A DNA stretch of 50,672 bases, taken from positions 1-50,672 of the IMG/VR virus record IMGVR_UViG_3300028364_000048. One strand, given 5' to 3'. Numbering within the stretch: position 1 is the stretch's first letter; every line of letters starts with the position of its first letter. The position numbers were made by a program, and so were the translations under genes. The notes under the pieces are model-generated. The model was not told the DNA's origin and ran no database searches. It worked only from the letters and a program-made list of their open reading frames with translations. Of the stretch, positions 12,815-45,636 are shown in pieces. This DNA comes from a virus (lineage: Duplodnaviria; Caudoviricetes).

Positions 12815-12966
12815 GGCTTCGTCGTCAGGTGGTAGTAGGTATTCCAGAATGCCACGTGGCGAAGATCTGTCGGCCCAAAGCGCACCGGCTCAGGCGATAC
12901 CGCACCAGCGGGGACGAGATCGCCCGTCTCGGGGTCAATGGCCCATCTGCGCAAAATTCCGGTCAT
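12811..12966 (-). CDS. Hypothetical protein
   Basis: ATGA-coupled chain of small genes; GGAGG RBS. Confidence 0.5.
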   Translation of the reverse strand: MTGILRRWAIDPETGDLVPAGAVSPEPVRFGPTDLRHVAFWNTYYHLTTKP

Positions 12967-13193
12967 GGCTGTTTCGCCTCCTTGAGCAATGCCGTTCCCC
13001 TGTCTTTCCACAATGATGCGAATTCAGGATACGGCGCGGTTTCCATTAACTCGGTGCACGCTTTGCACCTATCATCCGCAGATTGGCGTGGGCTGTTCAC
13101 TATTCGGGCAAGATCTGCACGTTTCGCTTTGGATTCCTCGGTGATCGGGAACAGTGGCGCGCCTGGGTGCGCAGGGAATAGAATGACAGTCAT
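12963..13193 (-). CDS. Hypothetical protein
   Basis: MTVILFPAHP start with GGAGG RBS; coupled to neighbours. Confidence 0.5.
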   Translation of the reverse strand: MTVILFPAHPGAPLFPITEESKAKRADLARIVNSPRQSADDRCKACTELMETAPYPEFASLWKDRGTALLKEAKQP

Positions 13194-13195
13194 TT

Positions 13196-13426
13196 TCAGT
13201 CCTCCGTAAATTCGAGTTCTTCCGCCATTTCCAGCAGGTAGAATGTGAGTTTCGGGCGCAAGAATGTCAGGGACGTGACGGCGATGCCAAACATTTCCAG
13301 CTTTTCGATCTCGATATTCACCGGCGCGTTGTATGCTGGCGACCCGTCTGCGCCGACGCCCTGACATTCCGCATCGGCTGTGAAGCTGACGAAAATGTCG
13401 CCGTTGTGATATGTGGCGCGCATCAT
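13196..13426 (-). CDS. Hypothetical protein
   Basis: ATGA overlap with upstream gene; GGAG RBS. Confidence 0.5.
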   Translation of the reverse strand: MMRATYHNGDIFVSFTADAECQGVGADGSPAYNAPVNIEIEKLEMFGIAVTSLTFLRPKLTFYLLEMAEELEFTED

Positions 13427-14091
13427 GTTTGCACTCCCGTCCACAGAGTCTGCATAAGCGTGCCGCGCAGGCGCGCAGACGCTACAAAATCCACCCGGAT
13501 CGGATCACCTGCACACTGCCCTCCGGTCAACCGGATCGGGCGGCCCTTTTCGATCACGTCTGCGGCCTTGACCAGCTTGGCCAGCACGGTCGGATCGTAG
13601 CACAAGCTGGCAGCGCCCCCGCCGCCTTTGGCCACCACGCGCCGCCAGTCGGGATAGGTGCCGTCGATCACGGTAAATTCCAGAACACCGACACGGCGCA
13701 TTTCACCGTCAGTACCGTCATTGATTACAAATTGCAGGATCCCGGTCGTCGTGTCGCCGTAGACCCACAGGTTCCCCTTGACCTTGAACGCCTTGTCGGT
13801 TGCGTCACATGACAGGATGAACCCGGCGCGTTGAGGCCTGCACACAGTTCCGGGATGCCATGGCCCGTCCATGCCTTGCGTGAAACATTCCGTGCCGACG
13901 TGGCATCCGTCTGGCAATTCAATCGTCATCACCTGGTGGCCGTCCAGCGCTACCAGCTTGTCAGCCTCGATCAGCACGCCACACAAATAATAGCGGGTCT
14001 GTTCGGTGCTGATGCACTGGAACGCAGCTCTCAGATCACTGGCAGGCAGGAAAAACGTGGTCGGTGTCGGGGTCGGTGTAATGGTTTTCAT
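13423..14091 (-). CDS. DNA polymerase III beta-clamp-like protein (partial DnaN fold)
   Basis: STEQTRYYLCGV...LVALDGHQ and IDGTYPDWRRVV match DnaN central-domain motifs. Confidence 0.8.
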   Translation of the reverse strand: MKTITPTPTPTTFFLPASDLRAAFQCISTEQTRYYLCGVLIEADKLVALDGHQVMTIELPDGCHVGTECFTQGMDGPWHPGTVCRPQRAGFILSCDATDKAFKVKGNLWVYGDTTTGILQFVINDGTDGEMRRVGVLEFTVIDGTYPDWRRVVAKGGGGAASLCYDPTVLAKLVKAADVIEKGRPIRLTGGQCAGDPIRVDFVASARLRGTLMQTLWTGVQT

Positions 14092-19857: not shown

Positions 19858-20712
19858 TTAGAACGGAATTTCGTCTTCATTTACATCAGACTTCTCACCG
19901 CTCTGGTTACCTGAACCATTGGTGTAGTTGCCGTCAGACGGTTCTTCAGCAATCTTAATGTTGCCACCCTTGACAAGCTCGTAGTATGACTTTGCTTCGT
20001 CATAGACAGAACGAGACACAGGGTCTTTCACGCGCTCAAAGCTTGGCGACCACCAGCTGTTGTCATTCTTCTCCTCAAGGAACGTTGTAAGATTGTAGGC
20101 GAACATAAACCGTGGAGCCGAGACTGTTGGATGGCCAGGCACTTTTGCCGAGGTGATGGCGTGGTTGAATTTGCGATTGGCACGGAGACCTGTGGACTTA
20201 AGGCCAATGACCATACGCTGCATTTCGCCGGTTTTCTTGTCGAGCATCAGCACGTAGTGGTAGGCCGTCTCTACAACAATCATTGTCGGATTGTCTTTGA
20301 TTACAGATTGCTTCTTCGCGTTCTTGACCGTGTCCTTAAGAATACTGTCATCGTCGTAAACGTCAATCAAGCCACCACCGCTGTCACGGTCAAGCCAAAC
20401 GTTCCATTTCTTGTTGTAATAGGCGGGCACAATAAGAACGCCATCTTTTCGTGCTTCAAACGTTTCGCCAGTAACGTTATTGAAAAGCATCGATGCTCTT
20501 GCGCCTTCGATATAGGCTTCTTTGCCCTCGTTGACTTGCGGCGAGAGACCTTGCAGAATGCCAAGAAACGGGATCGCAATGTCGTTTGCGTCAAGCTCCT
20601 CGTTCCCAAGACCGGCGTCTGCAGTAATAAAGTCAAGATCATAGCCTTCCATTCCTGATGGAAGACCAGCATCTTTCTTGACAACAACTTCGTTTTTCTT
20701 TGTATCGGCCAT
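19858..20712 (-). CDS. Putative single-stranded DNA-binding protein
   Basis: Acidic C-terminus ending EDEIPF; IPFLGILQGLSPQV motif; replication-module context. Confidence 0.7.
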   Translation of the reverse strand: MADTKKNEVVVKKDAGLPSGMEGYDLDFITADAGLGNEELDANDIAIPFLGILQGLSPQVNEGKEAYIEGARASMLFNNVTGETFEARKDGVLIVPAYYNKKWNVWLDRDSGGGLIDVYDDDSILKDTVKNAKKQSVIKDNPTMIVVETAYHYVLMLDKKTGEMQRMVIGLKSTGLRANRKFNHAITSAKVPGHPTVSAPRFMFAYNLTTFLEEKNDNSWWSPSFERVKDPVSRSVYDEAKSYYELVKGGNIKIAEEPSDGNYTNGSGNQSGEKSDVNEDEIPF

Positions 20713-20715
20713 GAA

Positions 20716-21303
20716 CTATTTCCTTTTTATCTTGGCTTCGTTGATTGTATAGGTCGTGATGCAGTCAGGTATTTTTTCGCCTGACTCGTAAAGCTCACGC
20801 ACGAGAGCACGTAATGTTTGCCAGTGGACTGATGGCTTCAGTGAGTAGTTAATGCCAAATCCCTCAAGCCGCTTTGCAATAGCCTCGGCCTGGTCGAGGT
20901 GGCCTTTCGCCACTGGTATTGTCAGAGCCGGCGTAATAACGCCAGATCGTTTGGTTTCCTTGAGCCAGACAAGAGCAGCATCCTCGTTGTCTTTTTTTAT
21001 GTTTCCAACGTACTTCATTGACACAGAAAGCTTAGATCCATTTTCAAGCTCAATAGACTTAAGATCCGCGGCTGACATGGCTTCAGGTAGGAAACCTTCA
21101 CGGATCACGCGTAGACTTTCATGGGCGTTTTTAGAAAGGGTGGTAAGAGCCTCAATAAAGTCTTCAAGCTCCATCATGCGAAGAGAAAGACGAGTGATGC
21201 TTTTAAGCCCGTCATCATCGAGATTAAGTTCTGCATTTTTCTCAATTACGCCAGCGTCAGCTAGCGCTTTACTCACGACGTCGTCGTAGTCACTTGTCAT
21301 CAT
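20716..21303 (-). CDS. Conserved phage replication-module protein
   Basis: LPEAM...LENGSKL...VHWQTLRALVRE pattern of the gene commonly found beside this SSB type. Confidence 0.6.
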   Translation of the reverse strand: MMTSDYDDVVSKALADAGVIEKNAELNLDDDGLKSITRLSLRMMELEDFIEALTTLSKNAHESLRVIREGFLPEAMSAADLKSIELENGSKLSVSMKYVGNIKKDNEDAALVWLKETKRSGVITPALTIPVAKGHLDQAEAIAKRLEGFGINYSLKPSVHWQTLRALVRELYESGEKIPDCITTYTINEAKIKRK

Positions 21304-21637
21304 TTTCATCCGATGCATCATAGGTTTTGACAGAGTAGCTCTGCCTGTATTTGTCCCACTCAAGAAAGCTGATACTTTCTTTTTGCTGCAGTTCAAATTC
21401 TTCTGATAAGCAAATGCAAACAACTGCGACAACAATCGGGCTACCAACAGGTAAGAAATAGTCGTTGTCAAAGTCAAAGTCAGAGAAAAATTCTCTTGCC
21501 GCGTCAGCAATAATCTTTACGTCAACAATGTTTACACCTAACGGGAACAAAACATTGAGTTCGCCAAATTCTGAAGCTGTAGTGAAGTCGTGGTTTGCTT
21601 GCTTAACAATTGTGTATACTGTCATTTCGTTCTCCAT
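21290..21637 (-). CDS. Hypothetical protein
   Basis: Full ORF with AEFGEL-like, DYFLPVGSP and LEWDK blocks. Confidence 0.6.
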   Translation of the reverse strand: MENEMTVYTIVKQANHDFTTASEFGELNVLFPLGVNIVDVKIIADAAREFFSDFDFDNDYFLPVGSPIVVAVVCICLSEEFELQQKESISFLEWDKYRQSYSVKTYDASDENDDK

Positions 21638-26726: not shown

Positions 26727-27161
26727 CTATTTTGGAATAAACTTAAACCACTCAAGTCCTGCGTCTAGCCACCAACGTCTCGCAGTCGAGTGTGGGTAGT
26801 CTTCAAGAAATACAATGCGCTTGCAACCAGTCATCAGCAACAGCTTTGTGCAGTCGTTGCATGGGCTTGCCGTGATATAAGCCGTTGCAATTTTTGACAC
26901 GTCATAGCAGTGAAGCAACGCGGCCTGTTCAGCGTGTGACGCTCGGCAAGAACTTAGGTCAGTCCCAGACGCAGCTGAAGCGGCAATGCACGGATCATCA
27001 ATGCAGTGCATTTGACCGGGAGACACCCCATTGAAACCAGTTGCAAGAATTCTGTTTTTGTCATCAACCAGAATACAGCCGACTTTTCGACGAGCGCAAG
27101 TGCCACGCGAGGCAACCAGAGAAACCATGGATGCATAGTATTCATCATTTGTTGGTCGCAC
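26727..27161 (-). CDS. dCMP deaminase
   Basis: TC.RRKVGC, GFNG, HAEQ and SPCNDC zinc-deaminase motifs; GTG start. Confidence 0.92.
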   Translation of the reverse strand: MRPTNDEYYASMVSLVASRGTCARRKVGCILVDDKNRILATGFNGVSPGQMHCIDDPCIAASAASGTDLSSCRASHAEQAALLHCYDVSKIATAYITASPCNDCTKLLLMTGCKRIVFLEDYPHSTARRWWLDAGLEWFKFIPK

Positions 27162-27364
27162 TACACCAGACCTTTGTCAATGGCAAACTGCTCTTCCATG
27201 GAAATGACAAAGACATTTTGCATCCTTTCGTGCGGCTGTACTTCAATCATAGAAAGAGGGAGCCACACTGCGTCCCTGTCGCTTTTACTTTCCGACACTA
27301 AAACCGCCCTTTCTGTTCGGGCGTGGATGTAGAAGTCAATATCGATTATTGTTGATCTTGACAT
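27161..27364 (-). CDS. Hypothetical protein
   Basis: TERAVLV...VWLPLSMIE...A.DKGL block; coupled to neighbours. Confidence 0.6.
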   Translation of the reverse strand: MSRSTIIDIDFYIHARTERAVLVSESKSDRDAVWLPLSMIEVQPHERMQNVFVISMEEQFAIDKGLV

Positions 27365-27365
27365 T

Positions 27366-28160
27366 TTAAAGCTCCAATATGCCGCTGCGCGAACCATCGC
27401 TTGCACAAGAATATAGACGGTCAAGAAACTGCGACGGAGGCAAAGAAGCAATGTTGTTGAAGTTAACGTCTTCTAGTTCGTAGTCCCATGCGGTAACAAT
27501 TTTGTTCACAGACTCAAAGTCTTTGTCGTAAAGATGGGCGGAACCAAGTGTTAAGTAAAGGTTTCCAAGCTCGAGGCTACGGCCGCAGCTGTAGTGATGA
27601 CGCAAAATCGACAGAATATAAGCTGAGGTAAGTGAAAACAGAATGCTGTCGTATGGCAACCCCATGTAAGCGTCGCTTGACCTCATCATTGCAACGCAAT
27701 GGATCACACCACCACGGATAAGAAACTGAAGTGACAAGGTGCAAGGGATGTCTTTGCTTGGCCCTGGACGCTCACGCCAAATATTGATAACTGCTTGACG
27801 GGAGCCTTTATCGTCGGCCAATGTTTTGCACACGTACGAGAGTTGGTCAACAATTTTGGGACCGTACGCGCCAGACATAAAGTAGCCGTCGTCGGAGTAT
27901 GGTGACATCTTACCAAAAGGGTGGATATCCGACAACAGGTTTTTGCCAGACAAAATCCACCAGGGCTCTGCAGCCGCAAACCTAAAGCCAAGATTTCTTT
28001 CCCCTACGCTTGGAACCGGGTTTGACATTGGCACCGTATACTTTGCACCAATTATTTCGCGGAAGTTGAGACCACGGGCCTGTTCGTCGGATCCTCTTTT
28101 CATGATTGTATCGAGGTGTCCAAGGTAGGCTTGGCTTGAAAAATTAGTGTATATGGTCAT
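27366..28160 (-). CDS. Thymidylate-synthase-fold enzyme, probable dCMP hydroxymethylase/methylase
   Basis: SRQAV, DIPCT (catalytic Cys), MRSSD...GLPYD (Asp where ThyA has Asn), SAHLY. Confidence 0.8.
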   Translation of the reverse strand: MTIYTNFSSQAYLGHLDTIMKRGSDEQARGLNFREIIGAKYTVPMSNPVPSVGERNLGFRFAAAEPWWILSGKNLLSDIHPFGKMSPYSDDGYFMSGAYGPKIVDQLSYVCKTLADDKGSRQAVINIWRERPGPSKDIPCTLSLQFLIRGGVIHCVAMMRSSDAYMGLPYDSILFSLTSAYILSILRHHYSCGRSLELGNLYLTLGSAHLYDKDFESVNKIVTAWDYELEDVNFNNIASLPPSQFLDRLYSCASDGSRSGILEL

Positions 28161-28161
28161 G

Positions 28162-28698
28162 TTACGTCTCCAAGTTTTTAAGTATTGCAGCTGAGAGTAT
28201 GTCTTGTGGTAGGGCGTCCCCGAATGGGTCAAGTATGTCGTGACGTATAACAGGGCACAGGCTTTCGAGTATCTTTATTTGACGCTCGTATTCATCATAC
28301 ACATCGATCATGTCGTTGTACATCTCTAAACGGTTCTTTTTTACCTCGTTGAAATGGCTGATGTAATCTTGCTTGTTCATCGGGTGGCAACAGACAAAAG
28401 TGGCGCCCAGGTTATTTGCACGATTGTATAGTTCAAGCGTTCTGTGCCGCTGCTCTGGACCGTCACGGAAAACATTACCGTAAACAACTTCGCTCATACG
28501 CCAGCGGTCAATTACAACCTGAGAGCTTTCAGACAGAATAACCGCCGCCTCAAGCAAATCCAAGTGATATTTCACCATGTAACCTGCCAGGTCTTTGTTG
28601 TACGTGGCGTGAATGTAGTGACCACCAATTTCCTTGGCAAGGGTGGTTTTCCCCGTTGCGTCTCCACCTTCCAGAATTATTATGGGGTGTATGCTCAT
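28162..28698 (-). CDS. Deoxynucleoside monophosphate (thymidylate-like) kinase
   Basis: IILEGGDATGKTT P-loop; VIDR..SEVVYG. Confidence 0.85.
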   Translation of the reverse strand: MSIHPIIILEGGDATGKTTLAKEIGGHYIHATYNKDLAGYMVKYHLDLLEAAVILSESSQVVIDRWRMSEVVYGNVFRDGPEQRHRTLELYNRANNLGATFVCCHPMNKQDYISHFNEVKKNRLEMYNDMIDVYDEYERQIKILESLCPVIRHDILDPFGDALPQDILSAAILKNLET

Positions 28699-29252
28699 AC
28701 CAAGTCACTTAAGTCAGGCGCAACCCAACCCTCCGGTTTTACAACATCCCACGTCGGATTTCGCTTTCCTTCCTTATCTGATTTTGCACGGACTTTTGAC
28801 ATGTTTGCCTTGTGCACACGGTCAAACGCCACGTTGAAAGAAAAGCCGTAGTCAAGTGCCATTTTTCGACAGCCACAGCAAATATCCAAGAGCTTGTTCA
28901 ACTCAACAAAGTCCGGGTCTAGGGAAAGTGTGTAACCACTTGACATCTTGTAAAGGTCAAGAAAGCTGAAGCTGTGTTCGGTGTGTCTTTCTACACGATC
29001 TTGAGCGCCTCCAGCAAGAAAGTAGGTGCCCATGGCAACGTAAGTAAGGTCTACAAGCCCGTCCAGCGTCTCATGCCTGTCCTTGCGGGCAAACGCCTCA
29101 TACGTTTCTTTTGCTTCCTCAACAAGGAACTTTTCACGGAACTGAACAAGGTCCGTCGGCATGTCAAGCAGGCTTTTGAACTGAGGCAGCTGAAACTTCT
29201 CGTGAAAAGAAACAATGCTCAGGTATTGCAACGTCAATTGCGAGTTTTTCAT
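28695..29252 (-). CDS. MazG-like all-alpha NTP pyrophosphatase
   Basis: EEAKE...DGLVDLTYV..G...VHKANMSK...KPEGW..PDL motifs. Confidence 0.85.
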   Translation of the reverse strand: MKNSQLTLQYLSIVSFHEKFQLPQFKSLLDMPTDLVQFREKFLVEEAKETYEAFARKDRHETLDGLVDLTYVAMGTYFLAGGAQDRVERHTEHSFSFLDLYKMSSGYTLSLDPDFVELNKLLDICCGCRKMALDYGFSFNVAFDRVHKANMSKVRAKSDKEGKRNPTWDVVKPEGWVAPDLSDLV

Positions 29253-30154
29253 TTGCCATCTTCCTCAGAAAAGTTTTTGTCAAGGTTTTGCCAGTCGTCC
29301 GACGATGCCCAAGGCTCCTTGATTTCCGATAGAGGCGGGAACTTCCGCTTGTATTCGGGACCGGCCGGACGCAAGTGCCAGATAGAGTTGCGCGACAAAT
29401 GTGGGAACGGCGTGCAGAACATGTTAGACAGGACGTTCGTGTCGTGGTACGCACGTGAGGCATTGAAAAAAGCCTCCATACCGGGGTACTCTTTGAACAG
29501 AGCATCCTTGTACTCGGTGATTGAAGCAAACGTTCCAAAGTTGGACATGACTTGAAAGCCGGCGTTTTCGATCATTGCACCGAGCGCCGCGTGGCGCATT
29601 TCATTGACGTGGTTTTTGGCTGTGGCAGTAACATTCCAACAAGGCGTTGACAAAATGACTTCCGCTTTGCCAAGTTTGGCAATCCGATGGAAACCCTCAA
29701 CCATACCTCGGGCATGCTTTGCGCTGACGTGTTCAAGTACTTCAAAGCACGTGATAAGGTTTGGAAGCATGTGACGCTGATCCGACTTTTTGACAGCGTA
29801 GTTGCCACTGGTTTTCAGCTTAATGTCCCGAGGGAAAATGGTGCTTCCGTATGTAGTGACGTCCATGCTTCCCCAATTACGATCGTGAAACTTTTCAGCG
29901 GCGTTGTAGTCAATACCCACATACTCGCAAAGCAAGCGGTTGGAATGAAGCAGTCGAGGCAACGGAAGGTCTGTGCCGCAACCGACGTCAAGGATACGAG
30001 TATCTTTGTAACGCGATCCGGAATGCATGATTTTTGCAACGTATGACCAGCGAAGGCAGTGCGCGATATAATCGCGATGAATAAACCCTCGAATTTCTGC
30101 TTGGTCAACGGAGAGGTCAGTGCCGTCAATAACACGACCATATTTGTTTGCCAT
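29249..30154 (-). CDS. Class I SAM-dependent methyltransferase
   Basis: ILDVGCG, YVGID, CFEVLEHV, ILSTP motifs; N-terminal HRDYIAH..RW block. Confidence 0.85.
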   Translation of the reverse strand: MANKYGRVIDGTDLSVDQAEIRGFIHRDYIAHCLRWSYVAKIMHSGSRYKDTRILDVGCGTDLPLPRLLHSNRLLCEYVGIDYNAAEKFHDRNWGSMDVTTYGSTIFPRDIKLKTSGNYAVKKSDQRHMLPNLITCFEVLEHVSAKHARGMVEGFHRIAKLGKAEVILSTPCWNVTATAKNHVNEMRHAALGAMIENAGFQVMSNFGTFASITEYKDALFKEYPGMEAFFNASRAYHDTNVLSNMFCTPFPHLSRNSIWHLRPAGPEYKRKFPPLSEIKEPWASSDDWQNLDKNFSEEDGK

Positions 30155-30242: not shown

Positions 30243-30608
30243 TCAGACTTCTTCGTCGTCTGTTTCGGCTTCGTCTTCGTCTTCTGCTTCTTCCATATCA
30301 CCGTCGACTGCTTCGCCCGAGGCATCTACCTTTGACTTCGTCTTTGCAGGTGCGGGTTCAGCGCGTTCGACCGTAACAAGGCCATCGACTTCTTCAAGCT
30401 TGGGGAGGTAGTACCCAAGGATGCGTTCGAGCGGCTGCCTGGATGTGATATTGCCTTCCATCGATGTGACAACGTCAGCAGTGTCAACTGCCACGCCTAC
30501 GCCATGCGCTTCGATTGCAGACTCGATGATCCCGCGCATTTGCGGCGCCATTTTGTCCTCAGCTGTGAGTTCACGGTTGAAAGTGATGGATTTTACGCGA
30601 GTGGCCAT
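30243..30608 (-). CDS. Putative DNA-binding protein with acidic tail (paralog family)
   Basis: APQMRGII...ITSRQPLERILGYYLPKLEE shared with two other ORFs; GGAGG RBS. Confidence 0.6.
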   Translation of the reverse strand: MATRVKSITFNRELTAEDKMAPQMRGIIESAIEAHGVGVAVDTADVVTSMEGNITSRQPLERILGYYLPKLEEVDGLVTVERAEPAPAKTKSKVDASGEAVDGDMEEAEDEDEAETDDEEV

Positions 30609-32979: not shown

Positions 32980-35535
32980 CTATCTCACAATGTTAAGGTT
33001 TGACTGGCTGTCTTCTTTGTTATAAACTGCAAAGCTTTCATTGTCACCGGTTTCTTTTACAAAGGTTTGCTTTGCTTCTAGTATGCCCGGCAGCATGAGC
33101 TTTTGGACTCCGCTATACGATGAAAGGAAACGGCCGCGAGGATTATTGTTTATCTCAACACCGGCCTGTCCTTTTCCGTATGTGTATGTTCTCAGATACT
33201 TGTAGAAAGCTCTTGTCTTCATGTGGCGGCGCTCGTCACGAATAGACTCTTTCTGCCAGGCCTCAAACAAGTCCCACAGCACTGACCTTTCTACCACTGC
33301 GTTCTGGTTCCAAGGCATAAAGCTAGGACCTGACGGACCTGACACAAACCCGCCATTATAAAGTGACTTTGAATACCAGCGGTTGAAAGTATACTCTGGA
33401 GAGTATTCTTGGCTGATCATTTTTTGTTTTGCAAGCGCGCTTGTTTTTGGTATCTCAAGCTTTATATTTGGTAACTTGTATTCTTTAAGATACTTATAAA
33501 GAGCCCATGGACCGCCATTAGACTTCTCTTTAAGCAGCGCATCCCAGTAAGACGTGTCACCGACGTGCGTGTCCGGTACCTCAATTGGAACCAGACGTCT
33601 TTCTCCTTTCGTGACTTGTGCAAGGCTATCCCTATTTGTAGTAAAGATAAAATGCATGAAATTGTCGCGCGTGATCTGTCCTTTACCTTTTGCCTCGCAA
33701 ACAAACGTTGAAGACGTTGACAGGTGCTTGAGTGTATCGAGTTGCGCTCCCTGTGATATTTTTGCCTCTTCAACGCGTATCAATAACTTTCCAAGCAGCT
33801 GATGGTTAAACTGCCCAGTGATCCTGTTTACATCTGATGAGGTAAAACAGGCCTGGTCGCCAAGCATGTGCTGCAGGTAGTCGCCAAATATTGATTTGCC
33901 TGATCCGTGCTCTCCAATCAGGGCAAGCATCCCACCGCTTCTTTTATCTGGAGTCTGTATCATATGAGCAAGAAAGCGCATTACATAGTCGTGCAATTCT
34001 TTAGGATCTTCCTCACCCGAGCAAATAAACTTTACATGCTCGAGAAACTTTTCACATGATCCGCTTTGGTCCATGCTTTCAGCGGCAACACCTTGCCAAA
34101 GGTTTACAACCCAACCATTGTCGCTGTCTTTGTATATCTTTCCTTTTGACGGGTTTACAGCAGATTTTGAAAACTTGCGCCGCTCGCCACCTGAGAACCA
34201 AATAGCAGCGGCATTCTTTGCTGGCTTCTTTGGTTCAACTTCTATTTTTATGTTACCATAAAGCAAACTAAAACTTTGGTAAGGTATGATTGCCTCTTCG
34301 GGGCTTTTGTATATGCTATCAAGGATAACCACTTGCGGATGCCGACCTTCCAGAAGAACACCAAACCGTTGATTAAAATAGTCAGTCATGTCTCTGAAGT
34401 GTGAGTAATCCCCGGAAAAAGGGAAGAAAAGCCCTTTTTCAAGTTGATCGTCGGGTCCATCTGCGTCGTCGTCATAAGATATCTCAGATCTTGGATTGTG
34501 GCTTTCGCCACTCTCATCTAAAAACCTTGCTATAAGCTCTAAGAACTTAGGAGGATGCGCATCTGTTGAAGTTGGGTAGTCTGCAATGTCCCATTTTTTC
34601 GGTAGGTTAAACCAATTTATGTCGACGACGTCAATGCTAGTTGCAATCCCGCCAAGAGCCTTTTTCACATCAAACGCGCCAAGAACTCCAGCTGTGTCCG
34701 CGTCGGGTATGATAATGACATTTCGGCCTTTAAGTGAAGACCAGTCGGTGTTGCCAACGGCTTGAGTACCACCTTTCCAAGTAGTAAATACGTAGCCAGG
34801 GTATCGTTGCGATATTTCTGTGTTACCATAGTCTGCGGCTTTTTCGCCTTCAACCACAATAACGATTGCGTCGGACTTAGTAGAAACGTAGGTTAACGAA
34901 TAGAGCATGTGCAGGTGTTTTTCCGACGACCAACCCTTGCACTGCCACTTTGGATTGTTGGGATCAGTCGGCCTATTTGGCTCGTCATGCTCGTCATAGT
35001 AGCCAAAGCTGTATTGCAGAATTCTCTTAGGATGGCCAACCGCGTCGTAGCGAACAACGATGCTATTTGCAAAGTCCCCGTCTGTGTAAATGTGAACCAT
35101 AGACTTGTGGAATTGCACAGGTCTACCGACTTTTTTATCTTGCAGGGATATAGTGTCCCTTAGCCTTGACGCATAGCCAGCCGCTGCTCTGTGGGATACT
35201 GGTATGCTGTTCCACTTGAATTTTGGCTGCGAACGCTCCGGGTATTTTTTTTCGTATTTACGATTTTCTTCTCTCGCTTTCTCAGCCTCAACCTGCTGTG
35301 GCCACGCGCCTCGTTCGGTGAGCAGTTTATATACTTCTTTTTCACAACCATGTGACCAGCACTTAATGAGAATGCCGACGCCTTCTTTAAGTGATACTGA
35401 TAAACTTGCGTTTGTGTCTCCATGAATTGGGCAGTAACAGGTAAAGCTTCCGTCTTGCCCAACAGTCCCATCCCACCCAAACTCTTTTACGCAAAGCTGT
35501 TCCACTTGGGAAAGAGTGTAGTGGAAGTCAGTCAT
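32980..35535 (-). CDS. DNA primase-helicase (Zn finger + TOPRIM + NrS-1/D5-like SF3 helicase)
   Basis: CPIHGD..SLS...C.S.GC; VEGEKAAD, PDAD..G, WDIAD; GEHGSGKS, FTTN, ERRL. Confidence 0.9.
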   Translation of the reverse strand: MTDFHYTLSQVEQLCVKEFGWDGTVGQDGSFTCYCPIHGDTNASLSVSLKEGVGILIKCWSHGCEKEVYKLLTERGAWPQQVEAEKAREENRKYEKKYPERSQPKFKWNSIPVSHRAAAGYASRLRDTISLQDKKVGRPVQFHKSMVHIYTDGDFANSIVVRYDAVGHPKRILQYSFGYYDEHDEPNRPTDPNNPKWQCKGWSSEKHLHMLYSLTYVSTKSDAIVIVVEGEKAADYGNTEISQRYPGYVFTTWKGGTQAVGNTDWSSLKGRNVIIIPDADTAGVLGAFDVKKALGGIATSIDVVDINWFNLPKKWDIADYPTSTDAHPPKFLELIARFLDESGESHNPRSEISYDDDADGPDDQLEKGLFFPFSGDYSHFRDMTDYFNQRFGVLLEGRHPQVVILDSIYKSPEEAIIPYQSFSLLYGNIKIEVEPKKPAKNAAAIWFSGGERRKFSKSAVNPSKGKIYKDSDNGWVVNLWQGVAAESMDQSGSCEKFLEHVKFICSGEEDPKELHDYVMRFLAHMIQTPDKRSGGMLALIGEHGSGKSIFGDYLQHMLGDQACFTSSDVNRITGQFNHQLLGKLLIRVEEAKISQGAQLDTLKHLSTSSTFVCEAKGKGQITRDNFMHFIFTTNRDSLAQVTKGERRLVPIEVPDTHVGDTSYWDALLKEKSNGGPWALYKYLKEYKLPNIKLEIPKTSALAKQKMISQEYSPEYTFNRWYSKSLYNGGFVSGPSGPSFMPWNQNAVVERSVLWDLFEAWQKESIRDERRHMKTRAFYKYLRTYTYGKGQAGVEINNNPRGRFLSSYSGVQKLMLPGILEAKQTFVKETGDNESFAVYNKEDSQSNLNIVR

Positions 35536-36301
35536 TCTGATTTATCCGATTGTTACAGTTATTTTTAAGCTCTTCGTAATAGCCATTTCTTACAGAATGC
35601 GAAATGCTCCCAGAGTATTTTTTAGCAAATAAAGAAAAGCTTGAAAATTCTCTTGCTAAGTCAAACGACTTTTGCTTATTCCATTTTATGCCAACGATCC
35701 ACCCAAAATCTTCCTGCAACCTGTTAAGTATACCTAACTTAAGAGCTGCAGCATAAACAGAAGTGTTTTTCTTAAACTCAGATTTGTTTTTACACAATAA
35801 AGCGGCGGCATAGACTGAAGACTCTGAGTGAATTTGTTGAGAGCCACCTAAATTTCCTGCACGATTAACGTTTGTGACAGTAAACCCTAAATCCTTATAA
35901 CTCTGCACATACTTTTCTTCAAGTTCAGCGGCTTGACCCGCATCAATGTAATCAGTTAAAAGCGTATACTCAAAATCACTGGACATGATTATTGCAACAG
36001 TTGAATGCTGCGTAAGCATTTTGTGCTTGTATAGTCTTACATCAAAATTATACGTTAAGCCTATATACGCTTTGTTTAATGACTTGGAAAAAAGAACATA
36101 GACAAGCCTTTTATACCTATTGCCGGCACCGGCGTGGTGCTTTATATCTTTTAGCCTATCTTTTTTCCACATTCTTGCATAAAGGTTAAAGTTTTTGACA
36201 CGCAATTCACTGCGTGTAGGGTACTCTGAAGCCAACAAGAAGTCTTCTTGTTCGTTATAGAACCTATAAACCTCTTTTTTAATCATCCCTGTCAACGCCA
36301 T
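35528..36301 (-). CDS. GIY-YIG-like (homing) endonuclease
   Basis: LVYVL....KAYIGLT....RLYKH...AAELE...N; AT-rich; start uncertain. Confidence 0.75.
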   Translation of the reverse strand: MALTGMIKKEVYRFYNEQEDFLLASEYPTRSELRVKNFNLYARMWKKDRLKDIKHHAGAGNRYKRLVYVLFSKSLNKAYIGLTYNFDVRLYKHKMLTQHSTVAIIMSSDFEYTLLTDYIDAGQAAELEEKYVQSYKDLGFTVTNVNRAGNLGGSQQIHSESSVYAAALLCKNKSEFKKNTSVYAAALKLGILNRLQEDFGWIVGIKWNKQKSFDLAREFSSFSLFAKKYSGSISHSVRNGYYEELKNNCNNRINQND

Positions 36302-36959
36302 CTTCCTCATTATTGTAGCTTTTTCTAGGATATTCGACATAGCCCTTATCGTAAAGCTGTGGCAGATAATATTGGAGAATGGAGAAAGGAGGCTGTTTTG
36401 TCTTAAGACCAAACTTGTGCAAACTAGCGCTAAGTATTTTTAGCTCGTTCATATCGTATGCGGATTGCTGCCCGTCGATAAGAGCTGCAATGATCACCTT
36501 ACACTGTTTGGGGAATTTGACCTCAGCTTCTGCAAGGCCTTTTAAATCAAACAAAAATGAATTGCCTTTGTTTTTAAGCTTGGCCTTCATCCGCGTGATT
36601 TTAGACTTTTGAAAGATTGCCCAAACGGCCTCAAACGGGTTTATTGTAACGTCCGTAAGACGGTTACCGGTAATCAGGCGATACATTTTACGCGCTTGAA
36701 TTGGCCTATAAACTGTCTTAAAATGGTTAATGCTAACGATAACATTGCTGCTGAAGACATTTGGGTTCATAAACCTTGATATGGCCTCAAAGCTTTCATA
36801 CGCGCGGTAGTTAAGAAAATTTACACTTTCCCTATAGTAAACCGTAACAAACGCGCAAGGTGCTTCTCTTGGCACGTTAGGATTTTCAACAAACTCAAGC
36901 AGGTGCTGATACGCCTGACTCGGGTGGTCATACGGGGGGACGACTTTAACGTGTTTCAT
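36279..36959 (-). CDS. Hypothetical protein with C-terminal paralog-family (putative DNA-binding) domain
   Basis: FPKQCKVII...LKTKQPPFSILQYYLPQLYDKG. Confidence 0.6.
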   Translation of the reverse strand: MKHVKVVPPYDHPSQAYQHLLEFVENPNVPREAPCAFVTVYYRESVNFLNYRAYESFEAISRFMNPNVFSSNVIVSINHFKTVYRPIQARKMYRLITGNRLTDVTINPFEAVWAIFQKSKITRMKAKLKNKGNSFLFDLKGLAEAEVKFPKQCKVIIAALIDGQQSAYDMNELKILSASLHKFGLKTKQPPFSILQYYLPQLYDKGYVEYPRKSYNNEEDGVDRDD

Positions 36960-39770: not shown

Positions 39771-40286
39771 ATGAGTTACCTACAAATAAGGTCTCCTTGG
39801 AACAGGCGCAAAGTAGAAAGCGCCGAGGAACTTTGGTCTACCTTCATGGAATATGTGAAGCACAGTGACAGTAGTTTTCTTGTCGAGCCAAAGATTTTCA
39901 GCACCAAAACAGGTATTGTGCATGGCAACCTTGACAAGGTGCGTCCATTCACGCTGCATGGCTTTTGCAACTTCGTTGGAATACACCCAGGAACTTGGGA
40001 CGGATGGAAGAAAGAAGATCGCGAAGAATTCTTTGCCTCAGTGCAGCTTCAAATCGAAAGCATCATATATGATCAGCAGTATCAAGGCGCGGTTGCAAAT
40101 ATATTCAACGTCACTATGGTTTCACGTAAGCTCGGTCTTGCTGACAAGAGTGAATTTTCAGGGCCAGGTGGAAAACCAATACAAGTAGACGGGATGACAG
40201 CGCGTGAACGAGTCGCTAGCAAGCTCCTTAGCCTCTCTTCCCGAGAGTCAGCGTTCAATGATCCTGTCGGAGATGACGGAGAGTGA
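39771..40286 (+). CDS. terS: Terminase small subunit (P22 gp3-like)
   Basis: RPFTLHGFC.F.GI...W, IIY.QQ..GA...FN...SRKLGL.DK, GPGGKPI; upstream of TerL. Confidence 0.85.
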   Translation: MSYLQIRSPWNRRKVESAEELWSTFMEYVKHSDSSFLVEPKIFSTKTGIVHGNLDKVRPFTLHGFCNFVGIHPGTWDGWKKEDREEFFASVQLQIESIIYDQQYQGAVANIFNVTMVSRKLGLADKSEFSGPGGKPIQVDGMTARERVASKLLSLSSRESAFNDPVGDDGE

Positions 40287-41496
40287 CCTAGCTGAACTTG
40301 AGTATGATTGGCAATTCTGGGGCCGTCAAAATCAGCTTGCCCCTAAAGGAATATGGTCCACTTGGCTGGCGTTGGCTGGCCGAGGTTTTGGTAAGACAGA
40401 GGCAGGAGCGCAGTGGATTAAAGGGCGTGTTGAGTCTGGGTTCGAGCACCTTGCACTTATCGCTGAAACCCAAAAAGACCTCGACTCCGTTATGGTTCCA
40501 AGAATACTCTCAATCTACCCTGAAAATGAAAGGCCTATTGCAAGGTTTAAACCCACAAAAATAATTTGGCCAAATGGTGCGGTTGCTCAGGGCTATACCG
40601 GCACAGAGCCAGATCAGCTTCGTGGACCTGAATTTGATAGTGCCTGGGTTGACGAGCTAGCAAAATATCGATATGCAAGAGAAGTCTGGGACATGTTGGC
40701 CTTCACTATGCGCAAAGGTGATGATCCGAGAGTGTTCGTCAGTACAACACCAAGACCAATACCGGTTATAAAGGAAATATTGCGCGACGCGTCCACAGTG
40801 GTGACCAGGGGTTCAACCTTCGATAACGCTGGTAATTTGCCAAAGGCCTTCCTTGACAAGCTTAAGAAAAGATATGCCGGCACACGCTTAGGTCGCCAAG
40901 AACTTGAAGCCGAAATGCTGGAAGACTTGGTTGGTGCTCTTTGGAACCAAGACGAGATTGACAAGCTTCGGATAGAAGAGCTTCCGGACATGCGGCGCAT
41001 TGTTGTAGCGATTGACCCAAGCGGAACCAAAGGTGTAGAAGATGACGGCGACAGTATTGGCATCGTGATTGCAGGCAAAGGTGTCGATGGTCTCGGATAC
41101 GTTATGGGCGACTTCACGTGCAAACTCTCCCCTGATGGTTGGGGCAAGCGCGCAGTACAGGCTTATAATAAATTCGGAGCCGATCGTATTGTGGCTGAAC
41201 GAAACTATGGTGGCGCAATGGTCGAGCACGTTATTCGCACCGTTGATAAAAATATCAGCTACAAAGAAGTGACTGCCAGCCGTGGCAAGGTGGTTCGTGC
41301 AGAACCCATCGCCGCACTTTACGAGCAAAAGCGCGTAATCCACGTCGGGGATTTTCCCGAGCTTGAAGAGCAAATGTGCCTAATGGGGCCAGATGGTTTC
41401 GTAGGCGAAGGTTCACCCGACCGTCTTGACGCACTGGTGTGGGCACTAACAGATTTAATGATGAGCGATGATAGCTCATGGGAGGGCACAATATGA
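40204..41496 (+). CDS. terL: Terminase large subunit
   Basis: AGRGFGKT, LRGPEFD.AWVDE, STTPRP, VAIDPS and DRLDALVWA motifs. Confidence 0.95.
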   Translation: MNESLASSLASLPESQRSMILSEMTESDLAELEYDWQFWGRQNQLAPKGIWSTWLALAGRGFGKTEAGAQWIKGRVESGFEHLALIAETQKDLDSVMVPRILSIYPENERPIARFKPTKIIWPNGAVAQGYTGTEPDQLRGPEFDSAWVDELAKYRYAREVWDMLAFTMRKGDDPRVFVSTTPRPIPVIKEILRDASTVVTRGSTFDNAGNLPKAFLDKLKKRYAGTRLGRQELEAEMLEDLVGALWNQDEIDKLRIEELPDMRRIVVAIDPSGTKGVEDDGDSIGIVIAGKGVDGLGYVMGDFTCKLSPDGWGKRAVQAYNKFGADRIVAERNYGGAMVEHVIRTVDKNISYKEVTASRGKVVRAEPIAALYEQKRVIHVGDFPELEEQMCLMGPDGFVGEGSPDRLDALVWALTDLMMSDDSSWEGTI

Positions 41497-42827
41497 ATTT
41501 CTTAGATGGCCTTCTCAACTACGTTTCGCGTCTTGGCACCAGTCGTGACAAGGCCTCGGCATCAATTTATGAGCTGGTTCAAATTGAAGAAAGCCAGCTC
41601 ATCGCGATGTACCGCAGTTCTGCAGTGGCGCGCAAGATCATCGACATGCCGGCCGAAGATAGTCTTCGCGAGTGGCGCGAGTGGTCGGCTGAAGCGGATC
41701 AGATCACGGATATCGAGGCCGAGGAAAACCGCCTCGGATATCAAGCTGCTATGATAAAGTGCTCAAAGCGCGCAGGGCTGTTTGGCGGCTGTGCAATATT
41801 TATCGGCACCGGCGAAGAAAACCTTGAAAAACCTCTCAATCCTGAGAGCATTGGTTTTGGCGGCGTCAAGTATTTGACCGTTGTCAGCCGTCAAGATTTG
41901 TCTGTTGGTATTCTCGAAGCTGACCCGCGTTCGACAAATTATGGGAAGCCCGACTTTTACCACATGAGCACAGTCACAGGGTTGCTGACAATCCACCCGT
42001 CGCGCCTGGTCATTTTGAGAGGCGATGAGCTTCCAGACGAGCGTTACACTGGTATGAACCTTGGGTGGGGTGACCCGGTTCTTCAGGCAGTGCTTACAGA
42101 TGTGCGAAACCTTGATGCAACTTTCGCGAATGTGGCAAGCCTCATTTTTGAAGCCAAAGTTGACGTTATGTCGATTGACGGATTTAACGATGGGCTGCGG
42201 TCAGGAGGTAGAGCGTATGAGGAATTGCTTCTTACGCGTTCAGCACTGACAGCTACCGGAAAAGGAATTAACGGCACTTTGCTGATGGATGTCAAAGACA
42301 AGTATGATCAAAAGAGCGCCAGCTTCGCAACGCTGCCTGACATCATGGATCGATACATGCAGATGGTCAGTGCAGCAGCTGGAATTCCAATGACCAAGCT
42401 GTTTGGCATGTCACCGGGAGGACTGAATGCAACTGGCGACTCGGACGACAGGTCATACTATGACCGGATCAAGGTTTTGCAGACGCTTGAGTATACCCCC
42501 GCAACGGCAATCCTGGATGAGTGCCTGATCCGCTCTGCCATCGGCTCCCGCCCGCCGGAAATCTATTACAAATGGAAGCCGCTCTGGCAGCCGACCCAAA
42601 AGGAAAGTGCTGAAACCGGTAAGGTTCTGGCAGATACTTTCAAGATTGTTTACGACATGGACATTTTGCCTGAAGAAGCAATTGCAAAATCGCTTGTGAA
42701 TGCCTTGACGGAAAGTGGTCTCGCGCCGGGACTAGAGAGCAACGTGGCTGAGTATTTTGCAGGGGCCAAGGCAGACGGCGATGACGACAATGACGCCACT
42801 GACGTGGCAGATGATTACAATGAGTGA
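41493..42827 (+). CDS. Portal protein (DUF1073-type)
   Basis: IIDMPAEDSLREW, AAAGIPMTKLFG.SPGGLNATGDSD...YYD, PLWQ; follows TerL. Confidence 0.9.
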   Translation: MNFLDGLLNYVSRLGTSRDKASASIYELVQIEESQLIAMYRSSAVARKIIDMPAEDSLREWREWSAEADQITDIEAEENRLGYQAAMIKCSKRAGLFGGCAIFIGTGEENLEKPLNPESIGFGGVKYLTVVSRQDLSVGILEADPRSTNYGKPDFYHMSTVTGLLTIHPSRLVILRGDELPDERYTGMNLGWGDPVLQAVLTDVRNLDATFANVASLIFEAKVDVMSIDGFNDGLRSGGRAYEELLLTRSALTATGKGINGTLLMDVKDKYDQKSASFATLPDIMDRYMQMVSAAAGIPMTKLFGMSPGGLNATGDSDDRSYYDRIKVLQTLEYTPATAILDECLIRSAIGSRPPEIYYKWKPLWQPTQKESAETGKVLADTFKIVYDMDILPEEAIAKSLVNALTESGLAPGLESNVAEYFAGAKADGDDDNDATDVADDYNE

Positions 42828-42836
42828 GGTGGTGAA

Positions 42837-43934
42837 ATGAATTTCACAGATGCGATGCATGTCACCGGCCAGATCAACCGGTCTGACACCGGGGCCGTCG
42901 TCTTTGCGCGCGTTGCGCGAGGTGGCAACGTGCAGGACTATCTTGGCTCTGAAATGGGCTTTCCTGATCGGAATGTCATCAGGGTTTACCGCCCTTTGGA
43001 TCAGGTTTTCTCAACAGCTGCGATCAATAGCTATGCGCGCAAGCCGATTACGATTGGCCACCCCAAAGGCGGAGTGACGACTGACAGTTGGAAAGAGCTA
43101 GCTGTTGGCGAGATTGATCCTGTTGGCATTATGCGCGATGGCGAGATGGTCACTGTGCCACTGGTATTCCGCGACGGCCCTGCCATAGCTATGCTTGACT
43201 CGCCTGATGGCCCAAAAGAGTTATCGATGGGATACTCTGCTGACGTTGAGTTTGTTGACGGTGTTTCTCCCAGCGGCGATCCGTATGACGCCACAATGTC
43301 TAATTTCATCATGGACCACGTTGCTGTTGTGCCAGAAGCACGCGGCGGAAAAGAATTGCGCATCGGTGACGCGCTTAAATGGGGCGCAGCGCCCCGCCCA
43401 CACACTGTTGAAAAAGTAAAGGATGACAGTATGACAATGCTAACAGTTGTGCTAGGCGATCGGGCGGTGCAAGTTGCCCAAGCCGATGCGCCCGCACTTG
43501 AGAGCTTCAAGGATGCGGTGACTAAAGCCGCAACCGATGCAGCTACGGCATCGACAGCGGTCATCGCCGCCAAAGACGAAGAAATCGGCACGCTGAAGGC
43601 CGACGCCAAAAAGCTGACCGACTCCGCTCTGACTCCTGAGAAGATGACCAAGATGGTCGCTGATCGGGTGGCACTGGAAACCCTGGTCAAATCGATTGCA
43701 CCGACTGTCGAAAGTGCAAATGTCGGCGATGCCGATCTGCGCAAGGCAGCTGTTGCCAGCAAGTACGGCGACGAAATGGTGAAAGACGCCAGCGACGCCG
43801 AAATCACCGGCATGTTCAAGGCGCTGGCCAAGGACGTCAAGCCTGTTGACGCCTTCGCCGATGGCGTCAAGGGCGGCCTGAAGGTTGTAACGAACGACGC
43901 CTGGGGCGCGTTCCTGCCAGCGAAAGGGGCATAA
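42837..43934 (+). CDS. Head maturation protease/scaffold (DUF2213-like)
   Basis: KPITIGHP, KELSMGY and DHVAVV..ARGG motifs; Ala-rich helical C-terminus. Confidence 0.85.
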   Translation: MNFTDAMHVTGQINRSDTGAVVFARVARGGNVQDYLGSEMGFPDRNVIRVYRPLDQVFSTAAINSYARKPITIGHPKGGVTTDSWKELAVGEIDPVGIMRDGEMVTVPLVFRDGPAIAMLDSPDGPKELSMGYSADVEFVDGVSPSGDPYDATMSNFIMDHVAVVPEARGGKELRIGDALKWGAAPRPHTVEKVKDDSMTMLTVVLGDRAVQVAQADAPALESFKDAVTKAATDAATASTAVIAAKDEEIGTLKADAKKLTDSALTPEKMTKMVADRVALETLVKSIAPTVESANVGDADLRKAAVASKYGDEMVKDASDAEITGMFKALAKDVKPVDAFADGVKGGLKVVTNDAWGAFLPAKGA

Positions 43935-43937
43935 GAC

Positions 43938-44321: not shown

Positions 44322-44335
44322 AGGAGTAATTCGAC

Positions 44336-45352: not shown

Positions 45353-45636
45353 TCGTAGGGAACCCAACCGCCCGCGCAAAGGCCGTCCGCATTGCGGGCG
45401 GTCACGTTATCATCGAACCGGGTAAAACCGAAACGGTGAAGTCCGACTTGACCGAGGCTGAAGTCGACCGGTACAAGGCTGCAGGCTTGAAGTTCAAGTC
45501 AACCAATGAAGAAGCTAAGGCCGAAGCAGACAAAGCCGAAGCTGATGCCAAAGCCGAAGCTGATGCCAAAGCCAAAGCTGACAAAGCCGAGGCAGACGCC
45601 AAGGCACAGCCCGCCATGCCGACCGGCAAAAAGTAA
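45349..45636 (+). CDS. Small head-associated protein with AKAEAD repeats
   Basis: Low-complexity (AKAEADK/A)n C-terminus; follows capsid gene. Confidence 0.65.
   Translation: MIVGNPTARAKAVRIAGGHVIIEPGKTETVKSDLTEAEVDRYKAAGLKFKSTNEEAKAEADKAEADAKAEADAKAKADKAEADAKAQPAMPTGKK

Follow-up and report, generated by a model that had tools for sequence, protein, structure and literature searches.

What base does a phage make when it encodes a homolog of thymidylate synthase (TS) with a cytosine-type active site next to a methyltransferase that depends on S-adenosylmethionine (SAM)? The question is raised by the IMG/VR virus record IMGVR_UViG_3300028364_000048, a tailed phage with an estimated completeness of 98%, which was analysed over its whole length of 50,672 bases (the window). 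A cassette of six genes on its minus strand (26727-30154) encodes a methyltransferase, a pyrophosphatase, a kinase, the TS homolog, a small open reading frame (ORF) and a deaminase (Table 1). Based on the analyses presented here, the cassette very probably makes DNA with cytosine modified at C5. We see about an even chance that it is a T4-like module which replaces cytosine at the nucleotide level, with the methyltransferase as its tailoring enzyme and 5-methoxymethylcytosine as its product. Concerning the single steps, the balance favours a methyltransferase that acts on the modified cytosine, and it is quite possible, at somewhat under even chances, that this enzyme specifically O-methylates the hydroxymethyl group of 5-hydroxymethylcytosine (5hmC). 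Our tentative proposal is that the virions of this phage and of its many relatives with the same module, including the cultured phages AXL3 and PW916, carry 5-methoxymethylcytosine in place of cytosine by means of a Hen1-like metal-dependent O-methyltransferase.

An earlier reading of the locus, made from the letters alone (the sequence-only reading), had described six tightly coupled genes and a candidate novel pathway of cytosine modification. All six genes lie on the minus strand where that reading had placed them. ATGA overlaps of 4 nucleotides are found at the methyltransferase/pyrophosphatase and pyrophosphatase/kinase junctions, gaps of 1 nucleotide at the kinase/TS and TS/small ORF junctions, and the stop codon of the small ORF overlaps the GTG start of the deaminase. 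The novelty of the pathway as a whole did not hold, because its core set is a published signature. According to the portions of the two papers available to us, which come from one group, no domain is linked to cytosine-modified contigs more strongly than TS homologs, the TS residues at 147 and 177 separate modified from unmodified contigs, and carbamoyltransferase, TS, PRA-PH and dCMP/MafB19 deaminase domains co-occur (Yang et al., eLife 2021, PMC8670742; dCMP, deoxycytidine monophosphate). Also, a deaminase is found within 3 kb of TS in 104 of 149 modified contigs vs 17 of 277 unmodified ones, and PRA-PH and PolA are among the top neighbours (MetaGPA, 10.1101/2024.12.05.627091). The window cassette falls within the MetaGPA definition: its deaminase is less than 3 kb from a TS with Asp at position 177, and PRA-PH and PolA lie nearby. 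A core of Asp-type TS, deaminase, PRA-PH and PolA has thus already been published as the signature of C5-modified cytosine, and what is new is the methyltransferase step. The word 'methyltransferase' is absent from the main text of PMC8670742. In the searchable CC-licensed literature of PMC and bioRxiv there is no mention of methoxymethylcytosine or its nucleosides, and no paper that brings together a phage dCMP hydroxymethylase, a SAM-dependent methyltransferase and a methoxymethyl group.

The distribution of the cassette was examined in loci centred on relatives of the methyltransferase, for which the best 80 of 320 matching IMG/VR stretches were taken; several of these are near-duplicates, and the 80 loci are not independent. 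The loci were found with alignment queries, and searches with a single protein returned none for TS and, in viral contigs, none for the fusion protein P0122 described below. At the DNA level, no relative of the cassette was found by megablast among 50,697 GenBank phage records. TS and the pyrophosphatase are each present in 71 of the 80 loci, the kinase in 66, the deaminase in 56 and PolA in 49. The order is nearly always methyltransferase, pyrophosphatase, kinase, TS, deaminase and PolA (with PolA after the deaminase in 49 loci), and since it recurs in most of the loci it reflects more than chance. The module of pyrophosphatase, kinase, deaminase and polymerase that the sequence-only reading had recognised is therefore conserved, and so is the pairing of this HRDY-type methyltransferase with an Asp-type TS, which it had named as a check: the nine loci in which TS is missing break off, all of them, no more than about 2.5 kb downstream from where the methyltransferase starts, short of the position at which their relatives carry TS. 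Asp is invariant at column 177 of the 71 TS partners; column 147 holds Thr in 69 of them and Ser in 2. They belong to three clades, namely the clade of the window, seven near-identical loci (L014-L019, L021), and the pair L007 and L012. The TS proteins of this pair are 46-47% identical to T4 gp42 (E 1e-63) and are grouped with it at SH-aLRT 98; in both loci the methyltransferase lies directly between TS and the deaminase.

Variants of the cassette are also found. In the proteins P0121 and P0122, a member of the methyltransferase family is preceded, in one chain, by a domain similar to C5-cytosine DNA methylases (with PPCA, ESV and QNRPR in place of PCQ and ENV). The family part of the fusion is 31% identical to the window methyltransferase over 259 residues and keeps all motifs. 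The P0122 fusion (L169:8134-10326) shares its contig with a 341-amino-acid kinase-like ORF, TS, PRA-PH, deaminase and PolA. This fusion ties the methyltransferase family to cytosine in DNA. Homologs of the C5-methylase are found in 12 of 166 loci (including L171-L173, L111 and L095:3981-5030), and some of these cassettes have no member of the methyltransferase family but another short class I methyltransferase; that of L095 was considered as a family member and rejected, as its BLASTP matches cover the SAM loop only. Some methyltransferase-less cassettes contain a 346-amino-acid ORF without a Pfam match between pyrophosphatase and kinase (L095:5389-6429; also L096, L116, L117, L145, L148 and L134), which may be another tailoring enzyme. 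The closest cultured TS is that of pelagiphage HTVC200P (L089:4965-5783), 45% identical to the window TS, which likewise has Asp at 177 and Thr at 147. Its gene is flanked by a hypothetical gene and a primase gene and is not accompanied by a pyrophosphatase, deaminase or methyltransferase gene; this phage may also carry modified cytosine.

Concerning the TS homolog itself, the sequence-only reading had noted Asp, encoded by GAC, at the specificity position and had taken it to be homologous to N177 of E. coli ThyA and D179. Residue and codon are exactly as described, and Asp171 shares a column with E. coli N177, the Asp of T4 gp42 and the Asp of phage Xp12 in the MAFFT alignment; in the HMMER alignment it is matched to the Asp of MilA. 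The hydroxymethylase of SP10, which acts on deoxyuridine monophosphate (dUMP), has Asn in this column (MAFFT). By the Asn criterion the window protein is not ThyA, as it carries Asp171 where dUMP-specific enzymes carry Asn. The active-site residues E58, Y94, R126, C146, R166, S167, D169, H207 and Y209 are kept in the window TS and in 69 full-length relatives; two incomplete relatives end before the last two of these columns. The thymidylate synthase equivalogs of NCBIfam score far below their cut-off (54 vs 327). Among PDB sequences the best match is the CMP hydroxymethylase MilA (8.9e-21), and the best thymidylate synthase follows at 8.1e-13; common to the window TS and MilA are ACT/PCT after a strand, MR(A/S)xDA and the specificity Asp. 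Judged by its sequence, the TS homolog is a cytosine-type enzyme.

The product of this enzyme is probably hydroxymethyl rather than methyl. MilA being its best solved relative, far ahead of the best thymidylate synthase, is one reason. The residue after the catalytic Cys is another: it is Thr in the window, as in T4 gp42 (MCT) and MilA (ACT), vs Pro in Xp12 and His in ThyA. In a quick IQ-TREE tree (76 rows; two truncated rows and two duplicates taken out), the 5-methyl-dCMP synthase of Xp12 joins E. coli ThyA (SH-aLRT 94) and stands apart from the clade of the window TS, which comprises about 60 rows including AXL3 and HTVC200P. The window TS is also in a separate clade from T4 gp42, to which it is 32% identical over 82 residues (BLASTP, E 1e-8), and is not its ortholog. 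In the C-terminal 60 residues, Xp12 aligns with the closing segment of ThyA and the window TS does not (MAFFT). The dihydrofolate reductase (DHFR) gene of Xp12 abuts its deaminase-TS pair, an arrangement that would fit a folate-oxidising reaction, and a tblastn search (E 1e-3) of the window and 169 related sequences gave no homolog of this DHFR; this absence is weak evidence, as a host DHFR could substitute. Finally, a sister cassette (L136) consists of a carbamoyltransferase, a pyrophosphatase, an ORF, a TS from the same clade as that of the window, to which it is 44.6% identical, and a deaminase. Its first gene encodes the 597-amino-acid carbamoyltransferase (L136:4241-6034; PF02543 and PF16861) in the slot that the methyltransferase holds elsewhere. 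In the available text of PMC8670742, the carbamoyltransferase from a TS-bearing contig acts on 5-hydroxymethyldeoxycytidine in DNA and on its triphosphate, not on 5-methyl-dCTP. The sequence of the L136 phage thus suggests that it probably makes 5-carbamoyloxymethylcytosine, and a carbamoyltransferase of this type in a sister cassette favours hydroxymethyl for the window as well.

The main rival to 5hmC is the route of Xp12, which we consider unlikely. TS would here make 5-methyl-dCMP for the DNA, a methyl-selective deaminase would convert it to thymidine monophosphate (dTMP), and the methyltransferase would have some other role. The Asp at column 177 common to Xp12 and the window agrees with this route, and the gene set of Xp12 is similar (deaminase, TS, pyrophosphatase-like hydrolase). 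In the available text of the MetaGPA deaminase study, 5-methyl-dCMP synthase activity is reported for five of seven tested deaminase-linked TS homologs, and 34 of 194 soluble deaminase candidates prefer 5-methylcytosine (5mC) over cytosine, giving dTMP from 5-methyl-dCMP, with the methyl-selective trait (mSCD) being polyphyletic (10.1101/2024.12.05.627091). The formation of dTMP from methyl-dCMP by the deaminase, which the sequence-only reading had offered as a new alternative, is already shown there for other cassettes. These activities weigh against a hydroxymethyl product, as do four features of our own comparison: the contrast of Thr and Pro at column 147 is based on a single 5mC reference, Xp12; the tree is quick, its reference branches are long and its root is arbitrary; the tail of the window TS is as long as that of ThyA (53 vs 55 residues) and differs in sequence only; and the carbamoyltransferase is present in just 1 of 166 loci. 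Against the 5mC route stand the position of Xp12 TS with ThyA, the Thr after the catalytic Cys, the lack of DHFR beside the 169 related sequences, the hydroxymethylase as best solved relative and the L136 carbamoyltransferase. Also, the methyltransferase is paired with T4 gp42-like enzymes as well, and Xp12 is not among the five phage records which contain the methyltransferase family.

The cultured phages bear on the same choice. Stenotrophomonas phage AXL3 carries the same cassette (gp27-gp31), with a methyltransferase that is 27% identical to that of the window and keeps all family invariants; PW916, a close relative of AXL3 which is also cultured, carries the same module. Two of the enzymes used on such DNA, AhdI and Eam1105I, are taken here to have the same recognition site. 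As reported in the available text on AXL3, its DNA is cut by 2 of 37 enzymes, TasI and Tru1I, both of which have A/T-only sites, and resists all 35 tested enzymes with G/C in their sites, including KpnI and Eam1105I (PMC7504290). KpnI and AhdI digest the 5mC DNA of Xp12 completely (PMC7653180), and digestion of DNA from its relative AXL1 with KpnI and Eam1105I is partial (PMC9206674). Since these enzymes cut 5mC DNA but not AXL3 DNA, the resistance of AXL3 argues against plain 5mC; 5hmC and its methyl ether are not separated by it.

Concerning the methyltransferase, at least 1012 relatives were found (clusters at 90% identity, E up to 0.001, from 1393 candidates), mostly on phage-sized contigs. 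In the protein atlas the nearest clusters are unnamed viral methyltransferases which are 95-100% viral. Across 185,579 species genomes there are only eight full-length relatives, all on contigs of 2-44 kb in metagenome-assembled genomes (MAGs) of unrelated phyla (L177-L184, with bins labelled Saccharibacteria, Nitrospiraceae, Dehalococcoidia, Thermotogae, Bacteroidetes and others). The three of these contigs with enough flank carry the cassette and the other five end early; the 'bacterial' contigs probably come from phages and ended up in cellular bins. The family is essentially restricted to viruses. Its motifs are HRDY, GCG (in the LDVGCG SAM loop), ExxEH, STP and NHxNE, of which the N-terminal helix HRDY...RW is family-specific, as is the C-terminal PW(T/A)SS tail.

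The AlphaFold (AF2) model of the window methyltransferase (pLDDT 91.2) matches many class I methyltransferases at Z 14-18, among them ChlM (Z 17.7), CmoM (17.1), HEN1 (15.1; root-mean-square deviation 2.8 over 184 residues) and UbiG (14.9); no DNA methyltransferase is among the structure matches listed by Foldseek and VIA-align for this predicted model. A profile of 37 family members, searched against 177,635 distinct PDB sequences, matches only human HENMT1 (1.2e-4, 2.1e-4) and Arabidopsis HEN1 (5.5e-4). In this comparison the invariant E138-x-x-E141-H142 aligns with ExxEH of HENMT1/HEN1 and the STP strand with their STPN. In HEN1 the metal is coordinated by Glu796, Glu799, His800 and His860 and in addition binds the substrate hydroxyls, as described in the available text of PMC10781085. 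NCBIfam gives weak sub-threshold matches to UbiG and bacterial Hen1 (TIGR04074, 17.7 bits vs 340), both of which are hydroxyl O-methyltransferases. The window protein contains neither [DNS]PP[YFW] nor ENV and has no PF00145 match. With its PF13489 match, generic fold neighbours and lack of DNA amino- or C5-methyltransferase motifs, it agrees with the small-molecule-type class I enzyme seen by the sequence-only reading. We read it as a putative metal-assisted hydroxyl O-methyltransferase with a Hen1-like mechanism, outside the Hen1 equivalog. A 5-hydroxymethyl acceptor is suggested by this type of enzyme together with the linkage to a cytosine-type TS and the slot shared with the 5hmC carbamoyltransferase. 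Most of the 37 family members are acidic (pI 5-6.5), which leans weakly toward a nucleotide rather than DNA as the substrate. The sequence-only reading had left 5mC, 5hmC and further methylated derivatives side by side: a modified cytosine stands, 5hmC is preferred over 5mC, and O-methylation is preferred over N4-methylation because the enzyme resembles Hen1-type hydroxyl O-methyltransferases and has no amino-methyltransferase motifs.

It is also possible, though unlikely in our estimate, that the 5hmC pathway is right and the methyltransferase targets another atom (N4, N3, a sugar hydroxyl or another nucleotide of the pool) or acts with a C5-methylase-like partner. The strict linkage to Asp-type TS is silent on which atom is methylated, N-methyltransferases are among the structural neighbours, the C5-methylase fusions (P0121, P0122 at L169) and homologs occur in cassettes of this type, and Hen1 methylates the ribose 2'-OH in the available text of PMC10781085. 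On the other side, the amino-methyltransferase motif is missing, the conserved Glu/Glu/His fits metal-assisted methylation of a hydroxyl, a 3'-O-methyl nucleotide would be a chain terminator and deoxynucleoside monophosphates (dNMPs) have no 2'-OH, and the enzyme that holds this slot in a sister cassette has the hydroxymethyl oxygen as its target. Several observations count against O-methylation of 5hmC by a Hen1-like enzyme. The linkage is one-way, since 45 of 79 TS-centred loci contain the methyltransferase and 34 do not, 20 of these 34 having at least 4 kb upstream. The recurrent C5-methylase-like partner or fusion is unexplained by this model. The top fold matches are generic and include the carboxyl O-methyltransferases ChlM and CmoM as well as N- and C-methyltransferases; ExxEH is shared by further class I methyltransferases, UbiG among them; and the invariant N181-H182, which follows the STP strand at a spacing similar to that in HEN1, is a candidate for D859-H860 of HEN1 by position only, as the HMMER alignment stops before it, although the structural alignment extends across this region. 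The pyrophosphatase has no sequence similarity to T4 gp56, and no mass spectrometry of virion DNA from a cassette-bearing phage was found in the accessible literature.

An improbable reading is that the methyltransferase is a Hen1-type 2'-O-methyltransferase of RNA 3' ends, or another RNA or small-molecule enzyme, and is merely co-transcribed with the cassette. Hen1 enzymes are its only PDB sequence matches, one GenBank relative is labelled 'capping protein' and the acidic pI of the family would suit such a role. However, the gene lies beside an Asp-type TS in 71 of 80 loci and three of eight MAG contigs, with three TS clades and in several gene orders, and at least two proteins join the family to a cytosine-C5 DNA methylase domain; the Hen1 equivalog of NCBIfam stays far under its cut-off, and no RNA repair partner of the Pnkp or ligase type was found next to the methyltransferase in the family scans of the window. 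An ordinary thymidylate supply, in which the deaminase makes dUMP, TS dTMP and the kinase dTDP, as in the published annotations of AXL3 and PW916 and in the Pfam/PHROG names 'thymidylate synthase' and 'thymidylate kinase', is highly improbable, given that the dUMP-specifying Asn is replaced by Asp in 71 of 71 relatives, that the NCBIfam thymidylate synthase score stays below its cut-off, that AXL3, whose authors read the genes in this way, encodes ThyX too and has restriction-resistant DNA (available text of PMC7504290), and that MetaGPA ties such TS homologs to modified DNA (available portions of PMC8670742 and 10.1101/2024.12.05.627091).

On the preferred reading, a T4-like module that ends in a methyl ether of 5hmC, the steps would be as follows. 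The MazG-like pyrophosphatase would convert dCTP to dCMP. The Asp-type TS would transfer a one-carbon unit from methylene-tetrahydrofolate onto C5 of dCMP, and hydration would give 5-hydroxymethyl-dCMP. The P-loop kinase and the nucleoside diphosphate kinase of the host would then produce the modified triphosphate, which the phage PolA would incorporate. Like T4 cd, the deaminase may turn some of the dCMP into dUMP, from which dTMP would be made. The Hen1-like and probably metal-dependent methyltransferase would O-methylate the 5-hydroxymethyl group, either on the nucleotide or in DNA, to give 5-methoxymethylcytosine. The coordinates of the genes and of the two key TS residues are presented in Table 1.

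Table 1. Genes of the cassette, key codons of its TS homolog and the polymerase gene of the window, with the best family matches
Feature	Position	Strand	Evidence
Class I SAM methyltransferase, 301 amino acids	29249-30154	-	PF13489 4.4e-10, 40 bits vs cut-off 27
PRA-PH/MazG-like nucleoside triphosphate pyrophosphohydrolase, 185 amino acids	28695-29252	-	PF01503 1.5e-7, 32.2 vs 21.3; phrog_671 8e-26
P-loop nucleotide kinase, 178 amino acids, short form	28162-28698	-	phrog_761 'thymidylate kinase' 1.1e-11
TS-fold enzyme, cytosine-type, 264 amino acids from ATG	27366-28160	-	PF00303 6.6e-20, 71.8 vs 24.3
Asp171 codon GAC (GLPYD)	27648-27650	-	Column of E. coli ThyA N177, T4 gp42 Asp
Catalytic Cys140 codon (PCT)	27741-27743	-	Column of E. 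coli C146; Thr next, ThyA = His147
Small ORF, 67 amino acids from ATG at 27364	27161-27364	-	phrog_8389 3.3e-6
dCMP deaminase-family zinc deaminase, 144 amino acids	26727-27161	-	PF00383 2.8e-19, 69.3 vs 25; phrog_174 2e-35
Family A DNA polymerase (PolA), 671 amino acids	23723-25738	-	phrog_17 5.5e-94; 1 kb downstream of cassette

Looking at the remaining cassette genes separately, the pyrophosphatase has only a weak PDB match, to DR2231 (E 0.045), and is proposed as the enzyme that would clear dCTP by analogy with T4. For the kinase, Pfam AAA_28 and the NCBIfam dTMP kinase match the P-loop only and stay below cut-off, and no match was found among PDB sequences; it is a candidate dNMP kinase for modified dCMP. 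Most of its relatives have about 330-350 amino acids (AXL3 gp29, L027:7435-8439 and L086:6289-7272 are examples), and the C-terminal part of this long form, of about 170 amino acids and without a Pfam match, is absent from the whole window. The deaminase contains the zinc motifs HAE (SHAEQ) and PCxxC (SPCNDC) and matches dCMP deaminases of the PDB at 1e-14; its putative role in dUMP supply is assigned from T4. The small ORF was considered as a conserved part of the module and rejected, with a homolog in 1 of 80 loci.

The rest of the window agrees with a tailed phage. The plus strand contains the terminase, portal, protease, major head protein and tape measure genes, and the minus strand a replication block with ligase, helicase, PolA, exonuclease and primase. 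The G+C content is two-part, with 50-61% in the structural genes (1-14000 and 40000-50672) vs 40-49% in the replication block (16000-40000), and the sign of the AT skew flips with the coding strand. Family scans covered 46 window ORFs; about 30 of 77 candidate ORFs of at least 50 amino acids, nearly all of them short, were left out. No match to the glycosyltransferase, DHFR or ThyX families was found among the 46, and no homolog of T4 beta-glucosyltransferase in the window or the 169 related sequences by the tblastn search described above. Just upstream of the methyltransferase, an ORF of 121 amino acids (30243-30608) has a strongly acidic, D/E-rich C-terminal tail; a Glu-rich protein, gp62, is reported in the replication module of AXL3 (available text of PMC7504290). 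A GIY-YIG nuclease domain (35528-36412; PF01541, 5e-7), directly upstream of the 851-amino-acid primase gene, may belong to a homing endonuclease. The replication block also contains a pair of Pam3 gp34-like and gp33-like genes (19858-21510; PF23977, PF23984), and a Pam3 gp34-like gene is likewise present on the metagenome contig of the fusion cassette (L169:2158-3228).

Known tailoring groups of phage 5hmC are sugars and, since 2021, the carbamoyl group. If the proposed reading is true, a SAM-dependent methyl ether would be the third tailoring chemistry of 5hmC and a new natural DNA base, and the methyltransferase would represent a new class of DNA-hypermodifying enzyme. Many environmental phages would then carry the modification, judging from the number of clusters at 90% identity (at least 1012) and the 320 IMG/VR stretches. 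It would affect the behaviour of the DNA toward restriction enzymes and modification-dependent nucleases, as well as the preparation of sequencing libraries and the chemistries of methylation sequencing; the capped hydroxyl should escape 5hmC labelling by glucosyltransferases, and the enzyme could become a new tool to mark 5hmC. The question is testable, as AXL3 is cultured and carries the cassette.

Among known systems, the cassette can be set beside the 5hmC pathway of T4, which comprises the dCTPase gp56, the dCMP hydroxymethylase gp42, the dNMP kinase gp1, the deaminase cd and the alpha- and beta-glucosyltransferases. Both have a pyrophosphatase, an Asp-177 TS fold with Thr after the Cys, a kinase, a deaminase, their own polymerase and a tailoring enzyme, and the methyltransferase-linked TS proteins of L007 and L012 are close to gp42. 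However, the window TS is distant from gp42, its pyrophosphatase is unrelated in sequence to gp56, its genes form one compact operon, and tailoring would fall to a SAM methyltransferase where T4 uses glucosyltransferases. The MetaGPA carbamoyltransferase cassette has the same TS, PRA-PH and dCMP/MafB19 deaminase neighbours; it uses carbamoyl phosphate and ATP where the window would use SAM, and 5-carbamoyloxymethylcytosine is shown there (available portions of PMC8670742), whereas the methyl ether is only predicted for the window. Xp12 also contains an Asp-type TS next to a deaminase-family gene, a nucleotide hydrolase and PolA, and its DNA resists most restriction enzymes; it differs in a TS that groups with ThyA, whose catalytic Cys is followed by Pro and whose C-terminus resembles that of ThyA, in the adjacent DHFR and in having no member of the methyltransferase family. 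With Hen1/HENMT1 the methyltransferase shares the class I fold, the metal-binding ExxEH and the STP(N) strand, but their similarity is very remote (E about 1e-4), the context is nucleotide metabolism rather than RNA repair, and its substrate is presumably not the 2',3'-diol of RNA. MilA, the best solved relative of the TS with the specificity Asp in both, is an enzyme of the Streptomyces mildiomycin pathway with CMP as the substrate by its PDB name; for the window enzyme, a phage setting with kinase, PolA and deaminase suggests dCMP as the likely substrate.

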